DNA of 64,000 nucleotides from Escherichia phage vB_EcoM_ACG-C40. Below the pieces are notes generated by a model. That model did no database searches, had not been told where the DNA came from, and worked only from the letters and a program-made list of their open reading frames with translations. The position numbers and the translations under genes were made by a program. Location: sequence record NC_019399.1; one strand, written 5' to 3'. This document shows positions 12,268-47,004 of the stretch, piece by piece. How positions within the stretch are numbered: the first letter of the stretch is position 1; the number at the start of each line of letters is the position of its first letter.

Positions 12268-12948
12268 TTATTTTAATGTTACGAAAGAAGAGTTGCGTGT
12301 TTCACGAATTAAAACTGATCCGTCACGGTTAATGTAATAAATTAAGCTAAATAAAGTTTGGTGTGCTGACGCATGTTCAAAACTAGTTGGGTGAGATTTC
12401 CAATCAGGAGTTTCAGCAATCCATTGATAAATCCACCAAGGAACAGTACAGAATCCTGGATTTTTTCCAATCAACTGAAGATTCGGGCTAAAGTTTTCCG
12501 GAAGAGTAAATACAGACGGCTTTTCAGATTCAATAATCTCAGCTACAGCCTGTTCAAATTTTTCTTCAACAAATGGAGTATCTTCAATCAAAACATCGGT
12601 ATTTTCAGGAATTTTATCTGTTTCTACTACTTCAATTTTAATGTCAGATTTAACCGGAGAATCAATCAAAAGTGCTGCTTCTGGATTGACTTCTTCATCG
12701 TCATATTTTAACCCCTCTGCAGCATCAGCAGCATCAATTAAGTCTTTAATAGATAACCCATCAGTCTCCGGCATAGGTTCACTAGCGAGCTTCTGGAGGG
12801 CTTCTTCAATATCAACAACGATATTATCAAAAGATTTATTCTTTTTGACCTTTATACCAAACTGTTCAGCATATTCAGCTAATTTAGCTTTAGCTTCTTT
12901 GTTATCATCAAGAGCCTTCAGCTCTGCAATATAATCTTTATCTATCAT
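12268..12948 (-). CDS. inh: Inh-like protein (inhibitor of prohead protease), by position
   Basis: 226-aa acidic ORF between hoc and segE; synteny-based. Confidence 0.65.
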   Translation of the reverse strand: MIDKDYIAELKALDDNKEAKAKLAEYAEQFGIKVKKNKSFDNIVVDIEEALQKLASEPMPETDGLSIKDLIDAADAAEGLKYDDEEVNPEAALLIDSPVKSDIKIEVVETDKIPENTDVLIEDTPFVEEKFEQAVAEIIESEKPSVFTLPENFSPNLQLIGKNPGFCTVPWWIYQWIAETPDWKSHPTSFEHASAHQTLFSLIYYINRDGSVLIRETRNSSFVTLK

Positions 12949-12997
12949 AATATTTCCTCAGTATAAATATAGATATATTTATTACTCGGAAAATAGT

Positions 12998-13615
12998 ATG
13001 TACCACTTTGTATATGAAACAACAAATCTAATAAATGGTAAAAAGTATATAGGAAAACACTCTACTGATGACTTGAATGATGGTTACCTTGGTTCCGGTA
13101 AGGCAATTCAGCAGGCTATAAAGAAATATGGTGAAAACAATTTCTCTAGAACAATACTAAAAGAGTTTAAAACTTCCGAAGAAGCGTACATGTATGAAGA
13201 AGAAATTATAACTCCTGAAATAATAAAAAGCAAAAATTATTATAATATGAAACCTGGCGGAATTGGTGGAATTGTTATGACTACAGAGGTTATAGCAAAG
13301 ATGAAAGAATCTTCCGCTAAGAGATTTGAAAACTCACCGGGCACGGTATTAGGTACAACTTGTTACACTAATGGAACTAAAAATATTTTTATTAAGCCTG
13401 GAGAACTTGTTCCAGAAGGATTTGTAAAAGGGATGGTTCATCCTAATAGAAAGTCCAGAAAAGGATGTAAAGTCAAACCGACTACCACAGGAACTTTTTG
13501 GGTCAATAATGGTGCAATAAATAAATTAATACAACCAGACGGTATTATTCCCGACGGATTTATTAAAGGTCGTCTCATGAAAAGAGATTCTAAAGGCAAA
13601 TTTAGTAAGGCATAA
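12998..13615 (+). CDS. segE: GIY-YIG homing endonuclease SegE-like
   Basis: 205-aa ORF with N-terminal YHFVYETTNLINGKKYIGKH (GIY-YIG motif); T4 has segE between hoc and uvsW; late promoter TATAAATA at 12962-12969. Confidence 0.8.
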   Translation: MYHFVYETTNLINGKKYIGKHSTDDLNDGYLGSGKAIQQAIKKYGENNFSRTILKEFKTSEEAYMYEEEIITPEIIKSKNYYNMKPGGIGGIVMTTEVIAKMKESSAKRFENSPGTVLGTTCYTNGTKNIFIKPGELVPEGFVKGMVHPNRKSRKGCKVKPTTTGTFWVNNGAINKLIQPDGIIPDGFIKGRLMKRDSKGKFSKA

Positions 13616-13617
13616 TT

Positions 13618-15126
13618 ATGGATATTAAAGTACATTTTCACGACTTCAGTCATGTACGCATCGATTGTGAAGAGAGCACGTTCCACGAATTAAGAGATTT
13701 CTTTTCGTTTGAGGCCGATGGATATAGATTTAACCCTCGCTTCAGATATGGCAACTGGGATGGACGAATTCGTCTTTTAGATTATAATCGCCTTCTTCCA
13801 TTCGGTTTAGTCGGGCAAATTAAAAAGTTCTGCGATAACTTTGGCTATAAAGCCTGGATTGACCCACAGATTAACGAAAAAGAAGAATTATCAAGAAAAG
13901 ATTTTGATGAATGGCTTTCTAAATTAGAAATCTATTCAGGAAATAAAAGAATTGAACCGCATTGGTATCAAAAAGATGCAGTGTTCGAAGGATTAGTTAA
14001 TCGTCGTAGAATTCTTAATCTTCCAACATCCGCAGGTAAATCTTTAATTCAAGCTTTGCTTGCTCGGTATTATTTGGAAAATTATGAAGGCAAAATTCTT
14101 ATTATTGTTCCAACAACTGCTCTGACAACTCAGATGGCTGATGACTTTGTTGACTATCGTTTATTCAGTCATGCAATGATAAAGAAAATCGGTGGTGGAG
14201 CATCAAAAGATGATAAATATAAAAATGATGCACCGGTCGTTGTTGGTACATGGCAAACTGTAGTAAAACAACCGAAAGAATGGTTCTCACAGTTTGGAAT
14301 GATGATGAATGATGAATGTCATCTTGCTACAGGAAAAAGTATTTCATCTATCATATCAGGTTTAAATAACTGCATGTTCAAATTCGGTTTGTCTGGTTCA
14401 TTACGTGATGGCAAAGCCAATATCATGCAGTATGTTGGAATGTTCGGTGAAATATTTAAGCCAGTAACGACCTCTAAATTAATGGAAGATGGACAAGTAA
14501 CTGAGTTAAAAATTAATAGTATTTTTCTTCGCTATCCCGATGAGTTCACTACTAAATTAAAGGGAAAAACTTATCAAGAAGAAATAAAAATTATTACTGG
14601 GCTTAGTAAAAGAAATAAATGGATCGCTAAATTAGCTATTAAGCTTGCGCAAAAAGATGAAAACGCTTTTGTCATGTTTAAACATGTATCGCACGGTAAA
14701 GCTATTTTCGATTTAATTAAAAATGAATACGATAAAGTTTATTACGTATCAGGGGAAGTTGATACCGAAACCCGCAATATAATGAAAACCTTAGCTGAAA
14801 ATGGTAAAGGAATAATTATAGTAGCGAGTTATGGTGTATTTTCTACTGGTATTTCAGTTAAAAATCTGCATCATGTTGTTTTAGCGCACGGTGTTAAATC
14901 TAAAATTATTGTATTGCAAACAATAGGTCGCGTATTACGTAAGCATGGTTCTAAGACAATAGCAACAGTCTGGGACCTCATAGATGACGCGGGCGTGGTT
15001 TCTAAATCAAAAACATCTTCTAAAAAATACTCGCATTTAAACTATCTTTTAAAACATGGACTTGATCGTATTCAGCGTTATGCTGATGAAAAGTTTAATT
15101 ATGTGATGAAAGAGGTTAAACTTTGA
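13618..15126 (+). CDS. uvsW: UvsW DNA/RNA helicase
   Basis: 502-aa ORF starting MDIKVHFHDFSHVRIDCEESTFHEL with helicase motifs; matches T4 UvsW. Confidence 0.95.
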   Translation: MDIKVHFHDFSHVRIDCEESTFHELRDFFSFEADGYRFNPRFRYGNWDGRIRLLDYNRLLPFGLVGQIKKFCDNFGYKAWIDPQINEKEELSRKDFDEWLSKLEIYSGNKRIEPHWYQKDAVFEGLVNRRRILNLPTSAGKSLIQALLARYYLENYEGKILIIVPTTALTTQMADDFVDYRLFSHAMIKKIGGGASKDDKYKNDAPVVVGTWQTVVKQPKEWFSQFGMMMNDECHLATGKSISSIISGLNNCMFKFGLSGSLRDGKANIMQYVGMFGEIFKPVTTSKLMEDGQVTELKINSIFLRYPDEFTTKLKGKTYQEEIKIITGLSKRNKWIAKLAIKLAQKDENAFVMFKHVSHGKAIFDLIKNEYDKVYYVSGEVDTETRNIMKTLAENGKGIIIVASYGVFSTGISVKNLHHVVLAHGVKSKIIVLQTIGRVLRKHGSKTIATVWDLIDDAGVVSKSKTSSKKYSHLNYLLKHGLDRIQRYADEKFNYVMKEVKL

Positions 15127-15815
15127 ATTATAAATTAATATATGATAATTTAATTAATAGAGCCCAGAATCGGGCTCGCCTTAATGGATACACTGAAACT
15201 CATCATATAATTCCTAGATGTATGGGTGGTACAGATGATAGGTGTAATTTAGTAGAACTAACAGCTGAAGAACATTTTATAGCCCATAAACTTTTAGCTA
15301 AAATTCATCCAAATCATTACGGTATAATTAAAGCCGTTATATGTATGGGAATGAACTCAAAGACTCATGAAAGACACGTTAATAAATCTTACGCATGGGA
15401 ACGTCGTAAAATGGCAGAACTTCAATCCGGTGAAGGTAATCCATTTTACGGAAAACACCATACGGAAGAACATAAACAATATATGTCAAAACTCATGAAA
15501 AGTCGTCCAATTACATGGGGAAATAAAATTAGTAAAACTAAAAGAATGAACCCAACAAAATGGACCGAAGAAGCTAAAAGATTACATTCAATCAATCAAT
15601 CGGGTAAAAATAATGGCATGTATGGAAGGAAACATTCCGCTAAATCTATTCAGAAAATTAAAGATAACATGCCAGATAATTCAGGAGCTAATAACCCAGC
15701 TGCTAAACCTATAGAAGTAAATGGTGTTAAATATAAATGTATGAAAGACGCTTCTAAAGCTACTGGATTATCAATGTACAAACTAAGAATACTCAGAAAA
15801 ACAGTTAATTTATAA
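15123..15815 (+). CDS. HNH homing endonuclease (free-standing), TTG start
   Basis: 230-aa ORF with HNH motif THHIIPRCMGG...N...EEHFIAH, repeated GxxN(P)xYGKxHS motifs and a C-terminal helix-turn-helix-like segment; no in-frame ATG before the HNH motif; TTG at 15123 overlaps the uvsW TGA and lies 7 nt after AGAGG. Confidence 0.8.
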   Translation: MNYKLIYDNLINRAQNRARLNGYTETHHIIPRCMGGTDDRCNLVELTAEEHFIAHKLLAKIHPNHYGIIKAVICMGMNSKTHERHVNKSYAWERRKMAELQSGEGNPFYGKHHTEEHKQYMSKLMKSRPITWGNKISKTKRMNPTKWTEEAKRLHSINQSGKNNGMYGRKHSAKSIQKIKDNMPDNSGANNPAAKPIEVNGVKYKCMKDASKATGLSMYKLRILRKTVNL

Positions 15816-15830
15816 GGGCTTCGGCCCTTT
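15816..15830 (+). terminator. Short hairpin after the HNH gene (possible terminator or processing site)
   Basis: GGGC-TTCG-GCCC followed by TTT, immediately before the uvsW.1 Shine-Dalgarno. Confidence 0.4.
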
Positions 15831-15840
15831 GGAGAAAAAG

Positions 15841-16071
15841 ATGTTACTAGAATTTAAACAATTTCTTTATGAAGCTTCTATTGATGAATTTATGGGTAAA
15901 ATTGCCTCTTGTCAAACATTAGAAGGTTTAGAAGAACTTGAAGCTTATTATAAGAAAAGAGTTAAAGAAACTGAATTAAAAGATACTGATGACATCTCAG
16001 TCAGAGATGCTTTGGCAGGAAAAAGAGCTGAATTAGAAGATTCAGACGATGAAGTAGAAGAAAGCTTTTAA
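15841..16071 (+). CDS. uvsW.1: UvsW.1 small acidic protein
   Basis: ORF-track start 15829 is TTG; ATG at 15841 gives 76 aa (MLLEFKQFLYEAS...), the recalled T4 UvsW.1 length; GGAG upstream. Confidence 0.7.
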   Translation: MLLEFKQFLYEASIDEFMGKIASCQTLEGLEELEAYYKKRVKETELKDTDDISVRDALAGKRAELEDSDDEVEESF

Positions 16072-16126
16072 ATTAAAAAAGGCCCAACCAAAAAGGAAGG
16101 GCCAAAACTATAGACTAAAGGTCACA

Positions 16127-16294
16127 CTATAGCAAAAGTTGCGTTTCATTTAATTGTTCTTCCGAACTTTCTGAAACTGGTAGTTCTTTAATGTAATTAT
16201 AGCAAGGCCCAGGATGTACAGGACCTTTGTCTGTTTCAACAACCAATGCAGAATCGATTGGAGTTTTACAGACAACACAAATCTTATCTGACAT
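16127..16294 (-). CDS. Hypothetical 55-aa Cys-containing protein
   Basis: ATG at 16294 preceded by GGAG at 7 nt; MSDKICVVCKTPIDS...; minus-strand TATAAATA at 16320-16327; hairpin plus T-run downstream at about 16075-16103. Confidence 0.4.
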   Translation of the reverse strand: MSDKICVVCKTPIDSALVVETDKGPVHPGPCYNYIKELPVSESSEEQLNETQLLL

Positions 16295-16322
16295 GATTGT
16301 CTCCTCTGAATTATATATCTAT

Positions 16323-16547
16323 TTATACAACTCTCATATGCATATCAATGCCCATATCTTTAGAATAAAAATATTCATCAAGATATCCGGCAAATTTTCC
16401 TTTAATATAAAGAACATCTTCACCGCACGGGTGGTCGGCCAGGATACGAATATCCTGACGCTTGAGATTATACTTTTTCATTAAGAATTGAATTTCCGTT
16501 TCGAATTCTTCTTCATAATTAAAAGCATCATCAATGCTATATTTCAT
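16323..16547 (-). CDS. Hypothetical protein (uvsY.-2-like position)
   Basis: 74-aa ORF downstream of uvsY, ATGA-type overlap with uvsY stop. Confidence 0.55.
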   Translation of the reverse strand: MKYSIDDAFNYEEEFETEIQFLMKKYNLKRQDIRILADHPCGEDVLYIKGKFAGYLDEYFYSKDMGIDMHMRVV

Positions 16548-44098: not shown

Positions 44099-44410
44099 TT
44101 ACACCGCCATTTTTCCTTTCAAGACGCCGTGGGACTGATAATCTTTGAGAACGAAATCTTTAGGCCTGAGTTTAAGAATGTATTCCAATTGTTCTTTAGT
44201 AGAAAGATAGCGGAATTTATAAGGCAATCCGCCTATTACCAGTTCACAAAGCTCTTTAGGTTCACGACGCAAAATTTCTTTACATTGTTCTACGTGATTC
44301 ATATAGATATGAGTATTACCACCGGAAAATATCAAATCTCCCGGAATAAGATTACACATCTTAGCTACAATATGAACTAACGTAGCATATGATGCAATAT
44401 TAAATGGAAG
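44099..44410 (-). CDS. td: Thymidylate synthase, exon 2
   Basis: LPFNIASYATLVHIVAKMCNLIPGDLIFSGGNTHIYMNHVEQ...; exon starts right after intron 3' end ...ATAATG. Confidence 0.9.
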   Translation of the reverse strand, partial: LPFNIASYATLVHIVAKMCNLIPGDLIFSGGNTHIYMNHVEQCKEILRREPKELCELVIGGLPYKFRYLSTKEQLEYILKLRPKDFVLKDYQSHGVLKGKMAV

Positions 44411-45426
44411 CATTATGTTCAGATAAGGTCGTTAATCTTACCCCGGAATTATATCCAGCTGCATGTCACCATGCAGATCAGACTATATCTCCAACTTGTT
44501 AAAGCAAGTTGTCTATCGTTTCGAGTCACTTGACCCTACTCCCCAAAGGGATAGTCGTTAGGCATTTATGTAGAACCAATTCCATTTATCAGATTTTACA
44601 CGATAAGTAACTAATCCAGACGAAATTTTAAAATGTCTAGCTGCATCTGCTGCACAATCAAAAATAACCCCATCACATGAAATCTTTTTAATATTACTAG
44701 GCTTTTTACCTTTCATCTTTTCTGATATTTTAGATTTAGTTATGTCTGAATGCTTATGATTAAAGAATGAATTATTTTCACCTGAACGATTTCTGCATTT
44801 ACTACAAGTATAAGCAGAAGTTTGTATGCGAACACCGCACTTACAAAACTTATGGGTTTCTGGATTCCAACGCCCGTTTTTACTTCCGGGTTTACTGTAA
44901 AGAGCTTTCCGACCATCAGGTCCAAGTTTAAGCATCTTAGCTTTAACAGTTTCAGAACGTTTCTTAATAATTTCTTCTTTTAATGGATGCGTAGAACATG
45001 TATCACCAAACGTTGCGTCAGCAATATTGTATCCATTAATTTTAGAATTAAGCTCTTTAATCCAAAAATTTTCTCGTTCAATAATCAAATCTTTCTCATA
45101 TGGAATTTCTTCCAAAATAGAACATTCAAACACATTACCATGTTTGTTAAAAGACCTCTGAAGCTTTATAGAAGAATGGCATCCTTTTTCTAAATCTTTA
45201 AAATGCCTCTTCCATCTCTTTTCAAAATCTTTAGCACTTCCTACATATACTTTATTGTTTAAAGTATTTTTAATCTGATAAATTCCGCTTTTCATAAATA
45301 CCTCTTTAAATATAGAAGTATTTATTAAAGGGCAGTCCTACAATTTAGCACGGGATTGTCTACTAGAGAGGTTCCCCGTTTAGATAGATTACAAGTATAA
45401 GTCACCTTATACTCAGGCCTCAATTA
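44411..45426 (-). mobile_element. Group I self-splicing intron in td, carrying I-TevI
   Basis: 1016 nt between td exons; 5' end reads TAATTGAGGCCTGAGTATAAGGTGACTTATACTTG..., as recalled for the T4 td intron; exons join in frame to 286 aa. Confidence 0.9.
44558..45295 (-). CDS. I-TevI: Intron-encoded GIY-YIG homing endonuclease I-TevI
   Basis: 245-aa ORF starting MKSGIYQIKNTLNNKVYVGSAKDFEKRWKRHF. Confidence 0.95.
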   Translation of the reverse strand: MKSGIYQIKNTLNNKVYVGSAKDFEKRWKRHFKDLEKGCHSSIKLQRSFNKHGNVFECSILEEIPYEKDLIIERENFWIKELNSKINGYNIADATFGDTCSTHPLKEEIIKKRSETVKAKMLKLGPDGRKALYSKPGSKNGRWNPETHKFCKCGVRIQTSAYTCSKCRNRSGENNSFFNHKHSDITKSKISEKMKGKKPSNIKKISCDGVIFDCAADAARHFKISSGLVTYRVKSDKWNWFYINA

Positions 45427-45974
45427 ACCCAAGAAAACATCTACTGATCGTTGATACCACTGCAAATCCAAATAGCCATTACGCACATTAAACTGATAGA
45501 ACATATGACAAGGCGGTAATGCCATCTGCTTGAGTTCAGCTGGATTCCATGCTGAAACAATTTGACGCCTATCATTTGGCAGTTTTTTAATACGATCAAT
45601 AACTTCTATAATTTGGTCTACACCACCAAAATCACGCCACTGTTTTCCATAAATTGGACCAAGTTCACCGCTATGGTATCCTAAATCTTTTGCTTGATTT
45701 TCGTAATTTTCATCCCAAACTGTTTTGCCTTGGATTAACGAATCATGTTGAATTAATCGCAAATCATTGACATTTGTGCTTCCCGATAAAAACCAAAGCA
45801 GCTCAGCAATGCAAGCTTTCCAGGCGAGCTTCTTAGTTGTTACTGCAGGAAAACCTTTAGTTAAATCCCAGCGTAATTTAGTACCGAACAAAGCAATTGT
45901 TCCTGTGCCTGTTCGGTCATCGGTTTCGTAGCCATTTTCCAGGATATCTTTAATTAAAAATTGGTATTGTTTCA

Positions 45975-45975
<1 letters not shown>
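45427..45975 (-). CDS. td: Thymidylate synthase, exon 1
   Basis: 183 codons from MKQYQFLIKDILENGYETDDRTGTG to ...SVDVFLG, then intron. Confidence 0.9.

Positions 45976-47004
<1,029 letters not shown>

Follow-up and report, generated by a model that had tools for sequence, protein, structure and literature searches.

The junction between uvsW and uvsW.1 in Escherichia phage vB_EcoM_ACG-C40 raises the question of how a further reading frame came to lie there, what it encodes and how the two flanking genes survived its arrival. The locus was analysed in a stretch of 64,000 nucleotides from sequence record NC_019399.1 (one strand, 5′ to 3′; referred to below as the window), in which an open reading frame (ORF) of 230 codons with a TAA stop, identified in the ORF list and in the raw sequence, occupies positions 15123–15815 on the plus strand. 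An initial annotation, made from the letters alone, had proposed a free-standing HNH homing endonuclease gene (HEG) that represents a mobile insertion. We consider it very probable that the product of this ORF is a free-standing, Mob-like HNH homing endonuclease, whose gene lacks a promoter of its own and homes into the 3′ end of uvsW, with nuclease activity and target site predicted by comparison with known enzymes. A chance ORF can be set aside because 230 open codons lie in A+T-rich DNA and the translated protein is matched by PHROG 655 ("homing endonuclease") at E 2e-60.

Insertion at the uvsW end and start of the nuclease gene

The host and presumed target gene is the helicase gene uvsW (13618–15126, plus strand; Pfam UvsW_N, ResIII, DEAD and Helicase_C), and the downstream neighbour is uvsW.1 (15841–16071, plus strand; 76 codons, ATG at 15841 after GGAG; Pfam UvsW-1 at 1.7e-30). 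In T4, T2 and LH2, uvsW is followed by uvsW.1 after only 25 nt, in agreement with the arrangement that the initial annotation had given for T4. Genomes without the gene end uvsW with ...AAT TAC GTA ATG AAA ACA GTT AAT TTA TAA GGGCTTCGGCCC, giving the UvsW tail KTVNL*. The window ends uvsW with ...AAT TAT GTG ATG AAA GAG GTT AAA CTT TGA (KEVKL*), and the ending ...AGA AAA ACA GTT AAT TTA TAA GGGCTTCGGCCC is found at the nuclease ORF. The ORF reads the native uvsW tail in the native frame and ends at the native stop; these last five codons and stop (AAA ACA GTT AAT TTA TAA; 15798–15815, plus strand) form the right insertion boundary, and the sequence from 15798 onwards is that of the HEG-minus junction, with no fixed difference downstream. 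The recoded tail carried at the left (AAA GAG GTT AAA CTT TGA; 15109–15126, plus strand) holds a Shine–Dalgarno (SD) sequence, AAAGAGGT, and overlaps the TTG at 15123–15125; the codon that changes T to E makes the SD, and the Leu and stop codons make TTGA. The cassette is inserted within the last five uvsW codons, its left end supplying a recoded replacement tail. Because the left tail was replaced in this way and the ORF uses the original tail and stop, uvsW, the nuclease gene and uvsW.1 are all intact. The junction named by the initial annotation was correct, with the refinement that the gene occupies no intergenic gap, the insertion point lying within uvsW itself.

Comparable boundaries were found in other genera. 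The Dhakavirus JS98 uvsW tail, ATGAAACAGGTGGATTTATGA, is identical to the last 21 nt of the nuclease ORF of UP19 and ESCO10, and the ATGA overlap with uvsW.1 is therefore preserved. The two tails of SP18, one ending uvsW and the other ending the HEG, agree at 23 of their last 27 positions, 19 nt of which form an unbroken run, and this insertion may be young. The left tail of the window, AAAGAGGTTAAACTTTGA, is closer to the left tails of Dhakavirus carriers than to the native Tequatrovirus tail, which suggests that the recoded left tail moves along with the cassette. The GGGCTTCGGCCC element at 15816–15827 (plus strand), situated after the nuclease stop and ahead of the uvsW.1 SD, can form a hairpin with a UUCG loop (stem-loop GGGCUUCGGCCC). 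It is native and lies outside the insert, is conserved in carriers and non-carriers alike, is unchanged in T4, T2, LH2, RB9 and others without the HEG, and forms in the fold of 15790–15860; RPN226 carries the loop variant CUCCGG. The hairpin is unlikely to be a terminator because just three T residues follow.

The first canonical start codon after the preceding stop is the TTG at 15123–15125, which overlaps the uvsW stop TGA (15124–15126) as TTGA (cTTTGA). AGAGG is located at 15111–15115, leaving a spacer of 7 nt to the TTG, and the wider anti-SD match AAAGAGGT covers 15109–15116. Neither ATG nor GTG occurs among the in-frame codons upstream of the HH pair (residues 27–28), the first Met being residue 34, within the HNH motif. 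The TTG overlap, the 7-nt spacing and the lack of an ATG before the HNH motif had all been described beforehand and were seen again in the sequence. That this TTG is the start is further supported by diverged orthologues, whose reading frames open with M/L-N-Y at precisely this position and in every case overlap the uvsW stop; the identical start position with (M/L)-N-Y was found in 11 carriers from several lineages. Seven of these (the window, T6, UP19, ESCO10, SP18, Bp7 and metagenomic contig SRR280) start with TTG, and all seven possess an SD-like run, AAAGAGGT in the window, T6, UP19, ESCO10, Bp7 and SRR280 and CAGGTGGA in SP18; AAAGAGGT-N5-TTTGA is thus shared with carriers of other genera (UP19, ESCO10, Bp7 and SRR280). 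The other four (Roth77, Rgz1, P479 and metagenomic contig SRR234) start with ATG and lack a strong SD. This alternation of TTG plus SD versus ATG without SD suggests that weak initiation is maintained by either of two routes. In the record of Shigella phage SP18 (NC_014595; extracted locus L030, 689–1384) the annotated coding sequence starts at 785, and the TTG at 689 overlaps the uvsW stop; as this TTG gives a full-length orthologue of 231 aa, the SP18 start is probably misannotated.

Coupling of nuclease translation to uvsW termination is indicated by the 4-nt overlap, which is universal among carriers. Ribosomes that end uvsW would probably re-initiate at the TTG within TTGA, aided by the cassette-derived AAAGAGGT in the final uvsW codons. 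A weak A/U-rich hairpin at 15095–15138 (−7.4 kcal/mol, z −2.1) could pair the nuclease SD and TTG; it recalls the hairpins that mask ribosome-binding sites at other T4 endonuclease genes, and is too weak to rely on.

A pattern search with the T4 late-promoter consensus, TATAAATA, found its only exact upstream copy on this strand at 12962–12969 (plus strand), the likely source of a segE–uvsW–HNH–uvsW.1 late transcript, and no exact copy between 12970 and 15815. The nuclease gene is therefore probably a promoter-less passenger of the uvsW message, and would be expressed late and at a low level, probably from the promoter at 12962. A promoter dedicated to the nuclease gene was rejected, no exact late consensus being present inside uvsW or upstream of the ORF; sigma-70-like and terminator-like matches did not exceed shuffled expectation. 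One mismatch from the late consensus, TATAAATT lies at 15129–15136, just inside the HNH ORF and 6 nt past the TTG; UP19 and Roth77 do not share it, and a transcript that began there, downstream of the TTG, would be devoid of the nuclease start codon. No Rfam family of any kind, group I introns included, matches positions 12500–16500, and the gene is accordingly regarded as free-standing. Several T4 seg and mob genes are likewise promoter-less cassettes that use upstream promoters (PMC2988022).

Domain architecture, distribution and linked uvsW tract

The HNH nuclease core (15189–15287, plus strand; residues 23–55, YTETHHIIPRCMGGTDDRCNLVELTAEEHFIAH) is indicated by invariant residues, a profile match and an AlphaFold2 model. 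An alignment of 48 homologues shows no variation at H28, N42, H51 or H55 and almost none at H27, and a profile built from this alignment places residues 20–52 on the HNH motifs of McrA (6ghc) and Cas8f-HNH; the catalytic residues expected of the HNH assignment are thus retained. The Pfam HNH match (PF01844) is sub-threshold (16.0 bits versus a cut-off of 21.4, E 0.014); the cut-off is passed by the Bp7-type nuclease from the same junction (26.7 bits). The model (overall predicted local distance difference test (pLDDT) 87) shows a possible beta-beta-alpha unit at residues 25–61, with strands at 25–28 and 43–46 and a helix at 48–61 (pLDDT above 94 in the core). The following region (15402–15671, plus strand) contains two NUMOD3 repeats (GEGNPFYGKHHTEEHK... 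and GKNNGMYGRKHSAKS...), for which Pfam NUMOD3 scores above its cut-off in two stretches (E 7.5e-14, 51.8 bits versus 20.4; best stretch residues 94–122), and the second repeat aligns to I-TevI residues 39–60. A C-terminal I-TevI-like DNA-binding helix-turn-helix (HTH) is predicted at 15699–15809 (plus strand) by phmmer, profile, Foldseek and the model. The I-TevI DNA-binding domain 1i3j was matched by phmmer (E 0.006) and by profile (E 1.5e-5, residues ~152–241), and was the best Foldseek match of the C-terminal region (probability 1.00, E weak at 0.05); Pfam I-TevI_DNA-bd scored 14.7 against a cut-off of 27. The modelled C-terminus consists of strands at 197–204 (a beta-hairpin) followed by helices at 207–214 and 218–229. 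As judged by these sequence and model comparisons, the protein is built from an N-terminal HNH domain, a NUMOD3 linker and an I-TevI-type HTH, the modular plan of the T4 Mob family, and the HNH motif, NUMOD3-like repeats and C-terminal HTH of the initial annotation are all borne out by the conserved residues, the Pfam NUMOD3 hits and the 1i3j matches.

The ratio of nonsynonymous to synonymous substitution rates (dN/dS) is 0.03–0.07 among Tequatrovirus copies of the gene and 0.10 for UP19 versus ESCO10, and strong purifying selection is concluded from these values. No frameshift or stop was found in any of 13 copies.

The distribution was examined by using a 1.7-kb query across the locus, which matched 700 phage records, with identity at the Tequatrovirus level for about 500. 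The insert is present in 47 of the 700, all among the ∼500 Tequatrovirus records (∼9 %), and the others align as two pieces, 689 bp shorter; presence and absence differ by a clean 689 bp with exact boundaries. Carriers include T6, PST, PYPS2T (99.1 % identity) and UFV-AREG1, and the nuclease protein is 98–99 % identical in T6, PST and PYPS2T; T4, T2, RB9, ime09 and LH2 are without the gene. Comparison of the junction across T4-like genomes, which the initial annotation had suggested as a check, therefore yields an insert/no-insert polymorphism, and the ORF is neither present in T4 nor shared by most relatives. Exact-pattern scans of IMG/VR for the carrier and non-carrier junctions returned two loci each, and the population sample was drawn from GenBank loci instead.

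At the protein level the matches fall into three bands, with 47 records at 95 % identity or more, 22 at 60–80 % and the remaining 1036 below 60 %; Roth77, the one record of the 22 that was inspected, carries its copy at the uvsW site. Orthologues at 54–70 % identity, found in Dhakavirus UP19 and ESCO10, Gaprivervirus SP18, Klebsiella phage Roth77, Morganella phage Rgz1 and two metagenomic contigs, are always located at the uvsW|uvsW.1 junction and overlap the uvsW stop. Within Dhakavirus and Gaprivervirus the gene is again sporadic: seven records cover at least 80 % of a HEG-containing UP19 query, and JS98, VR5 and many others match without the insert. A second HNH lineage of about 260 aa was encountered at the same junction in Bp7 and P479 (2088–2870 in extracted locus L007 and 1588–2373 in L026, respectively). 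It shares only its first 64 residues with the window type (49 % identity), the C-terminal region being unrelated, which suggests domain swapping or endonuclease replacement at one site.

Carriers also differ from non-carriers beside the insert. When seven carrier and nine non-carrier loci were aligned, all 16 fixed differences fell within the last 88 bp of uvsW (15039–15125, plus strand); none was found elsewhere in the 1.5-kb uvsW gene and none to the right of 15798. The first nine are synonymous third-position changes, and the others constitute the recoded tail. A 100-nt query of this tract retrieved exactly 47 records at 98 % identity or more, the next best match being 82.5 % identical; the donor of the recoded tract was not identified, the best non-carrier and cross-genus database matches being ∼80–82 % identical. 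Immediately to the left, positions 14990–15035 form a hypervariable block near the UvsW C-terminus with two haplotypes, VVSKSKTSSKKYS in the window and VKPKSANTKKKYV in T4. Of the 51 records that share the window haplotype, 47 are the HNH carriers; LH2 is one of about four non-carrier recombinants, with a breakpoint between 14997 and 15039. The HEG-minus alleles of three genera have GA(A/G)AAATTTAA(T/C)TACGTAATGAAA in common. Most carriers have TAT GTN where HEG-minus alleles have TAC GTA; the carrier UP19 does not follow this rule and the non-carrier RB69 has TAT, so that the association is suggestive only. As far as can be judged from the alignments, the pattern is consistent with joint movement of the cassette and a short co-converted flank, and the conserved uvsW 3′ end is a candidate recognition and cleavage region because the fixed differences are asymmetric, lying to the left only.

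Proposed homing cycle and rival explanations

A homing cycle can be proposed on this basis. During co-infection with a gene-less relative the enzyme would use an extended stretch of the conserved uvsW 3′ end as its binding site and, to judge by its family, would nick or cut this DNA. Recombinational repair with the carrier genome as template would copy in the cassette along with ∼90–135 bp of neighbouring uvsW sequence. Protection of the carrier's own allele would follow from the splitting of the site by the insertion and from the 16 substitutions in the adjacent 88 bp. Nicking of a single strand and over-inheritance are reported for MobA, MobE and I-HmuI, and whether a nicking-type HNH enzyme drives homing was listed as an open question in a 2010 T4 review (PMC2988022). 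The mobile insertion proposed in the initial annotation thus receives indirect support from the presence/absence polymorphism, the occupation of the same site in several genera and the linked diverged tract.

Several points weigh against this interpretation. Full-text literature searches found no paper characterising the nuclease protein, whose activity, target and homing are put forward here by inference only. The Pfam HNH and I-TevI_DNA-bd matches fall under their curated cut-offs, and the hairpin that might mask the SD and TTG (15095–15138) is weak. In the carrier UP19 the HEG-minus sequence TACGTA, from which most other carriers differ at two positions, is retained, and the linked 88-bp tract may reflect passive hitch-hiking of sequence that came from a divergent donor, not target immunity.

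A more elaborate reading, in which the element is a conserved "tail-swap" cassette specialised for a translationally coupled junction, with the junction as a hot spot and with selected target immunity, is offered tentatively, and we lean slightly towards doubting it as a whole. The last uvsW codons may have been duplicated, the left copy being recoded with its own ribosome-binding site and start. The right copy may serve as the C-terminus and stop of the nuclease and, in Dhakavirus and Gaprivervirus, may also hold the SD and overlapping ATG of uvsW.1. Initiation may be held low interchangeably by TTG with a strong SD or by ATG without one, and uvsW|uvsW.1, occupied by two HNH lineages whose DNA-binding regions are unrelated, may be a multi-genus hot spot. 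Finally, the synonymous changes in the 88-bp tract, such as TACGTA to TATGTN, may be selected target immunity, not hitch-hiking.

Three other explanations of the gene were weighed against a homing endonuclease. The strong purifying selection (dN/dS 0.03–0.07) and an ORF that is intact in all carriers examined would also be expected of a domesticated, non-homing protein that is kept for a benefit to the phage, for example a DNA-binding regulator or a nuclease directed against competing phages or host DNA. A generally useful gene should, however, be more widely fixed than one that is found sporadically (∼9 %) among near-identical genomes, and domestication accounts neither for the use of the same site in several genera nor for the diverged flank tract that is tightly linked to the gene; the sporadic distribution, the same site and the linked tract are therefore taken together as the signature of a site-specific mobile element, and domestication is considered improbable. 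Selection speaks in the opposite direction where an inactive relic is concerned, a dead HEG persisting by linkage only: dN/dS is far below 1, none of the 13 copies contains a frameshift or stop, and the catalytic residues are invariant. The weak TTG start codon could be read as decay, but TTG is always paired with a good SD and looks tuned, not decayed. Although many T4 mob and seg genes lack demonstrated activity (table in PMC2988022), a relic is regarded as very unlikely here, rather more so than domestication.

The least credible explanation, which we regard as scarcely tenable, is that the ORF is expressed as a UvsW–HNH fusion by ribosomal frameshifting at the uvsW stop, with no TTG initiation. 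The two frames do overlap by one nucleotide step at TTGA, and Roth77 has A-AAT-TTA before its stop; the window and T6 both have T-AAA-CTT at this point, however, and no slippery heptamer is conserved. A plain ATG occurs at the same position in four lineages, and the N-terminus M/L-N-Y-x-x-I-Y is family-wide. The fusion was rejected on the absence of a conserved slippery site among the compared carriers. The notion that the split between uvsW and uvsW.1 is an ancient endonuclease scar was also unsupported: in a search that reaches only fairly close relatives, all 75 UvsW.1 homologues stand alone (52–96 aa) and none is fused to a helicase.

Annotation, neighbouring elements and known systems

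The gene is already labelled "homing endonuclease" in many GenBank records, yet it is a new, uncharacterised member of the T4 Mob-type family. The correct annotation is homing endonuclease, HNH/Mob-like, with a TTG start, and not mobD; the label "mobD"/"MobE" in the PST record is a similarity-based annotation only. Other labels at the locus are uneven. The T6 record AP018814 gives the segE-like ORF the erroneous name "tail tape measure protein". In Klebsiella phages Roth77 and Roth19 uvsW appears as "U3 small nucleolar RNA-associated SSU processome protein 25", in ESCO10 it appears as "tail completion protein", and uvsW.1 is without annotation in the T4 mutant clone record MZ375356. The locus provides a new candidate endonuclease/target pair at a core recombination gene of T-even phages, and its duplicated, recoded uvsW tail illustrates entry into a coding region and a coupled translation unit without harm to the host gene. 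Only the tail duplication and recoding and the alternation of TTG plus SD with ATG without SD are possibly noteworthy to specialists.

A segE-like GIY-YIG homing endonuclease gene (12998–13615, plus strand) is located directly upstream of uvsW. Its presence is independent of that of the HNH gene, all four combinations occurring among relatives; with segE at its 5′ end and the HNH gene at its 3′ end, uvsW is bracketed by two independent selfish nuclease genes. Elsewhere in the window the td gene (44099–45987, minus strand) is split by an intron-like gap into exons at 45424–45987 and 44099–44413. The gap holds an I-TevI-type GIY-YIG ORF of 245 aa (44558–45295, minus strand; MKSGIYQIKNTLNNKVYVGSAKDFEKRW...), whose DNA-binding domain is similar to the C-terminal part of the HNH protein (tblastn E 1e-5).

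Among known systems the closest resemblance is to the T4 Mob family (MobA–MobE; MobE studied in T4 and Aeh1), with which the window nuclease shares the N-terminal core E-x-HHIIP...GG-D...N-L-V-x-L-T...EH...AH, joined in both to a variable C-terminal DNA-binding region. Both are encoded by promoter-less cassettes between conserved DNA-metabolism genes and are sporadic among T-even phages (PMC2988022). None of the T4 mob genes is orthologous to the window gene, and the uvsW|uvsW.1 site does not appear in the T4 list (PMC2988022); orthology is denied because T4 is empty at this locus and no match from outside the uvsW-site lineage reaches 60 % identity. The sole T4 DNA match to the nuclease gene is 91 nt of the mobB HNH motif. 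SegE of T4, a GIY-YIG enzyme whose gene is inserted between inh and uvsW and which cleaves uvsW, is likewise encoded by a free-standing HEG attached to uvsW, but belongs to another nuclease family, is found at the opposite uvsW end and is independent in its presence; segE is the only entry next to uvsW in the endonuclease table of the T4 review (PMC2988022).

The C-terminal NUMOD3 helix and HTH of the window nuclease align to residues 35–108 of I-TevI (1i3j), the td-intron enzyme, and the layout of an N-terminal nuclease, a long linker and a C-terminal DNA-binding module is common to both; I-TevI differs in being a GIY-YIG enzyme encoded within an intron, whereas the window nuclease is an HNH enzyme with a free-standing gene. 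HEGs are reported to swap at one site in systems of the Hef/SegH type, and a likeness is seen here in the two HNH lineages with unrelated C-terminal regions, the window type and the Bp7/P479 type, that occupy one junction. In Aeh1, mobE is said to reside inside nrdA without inactivating it; the window insertion similarly lies inside a host coding sequence with the host function still encoded, but it displaces and replaces the last five host codons only, and the host protein is not split into two polypeptides.

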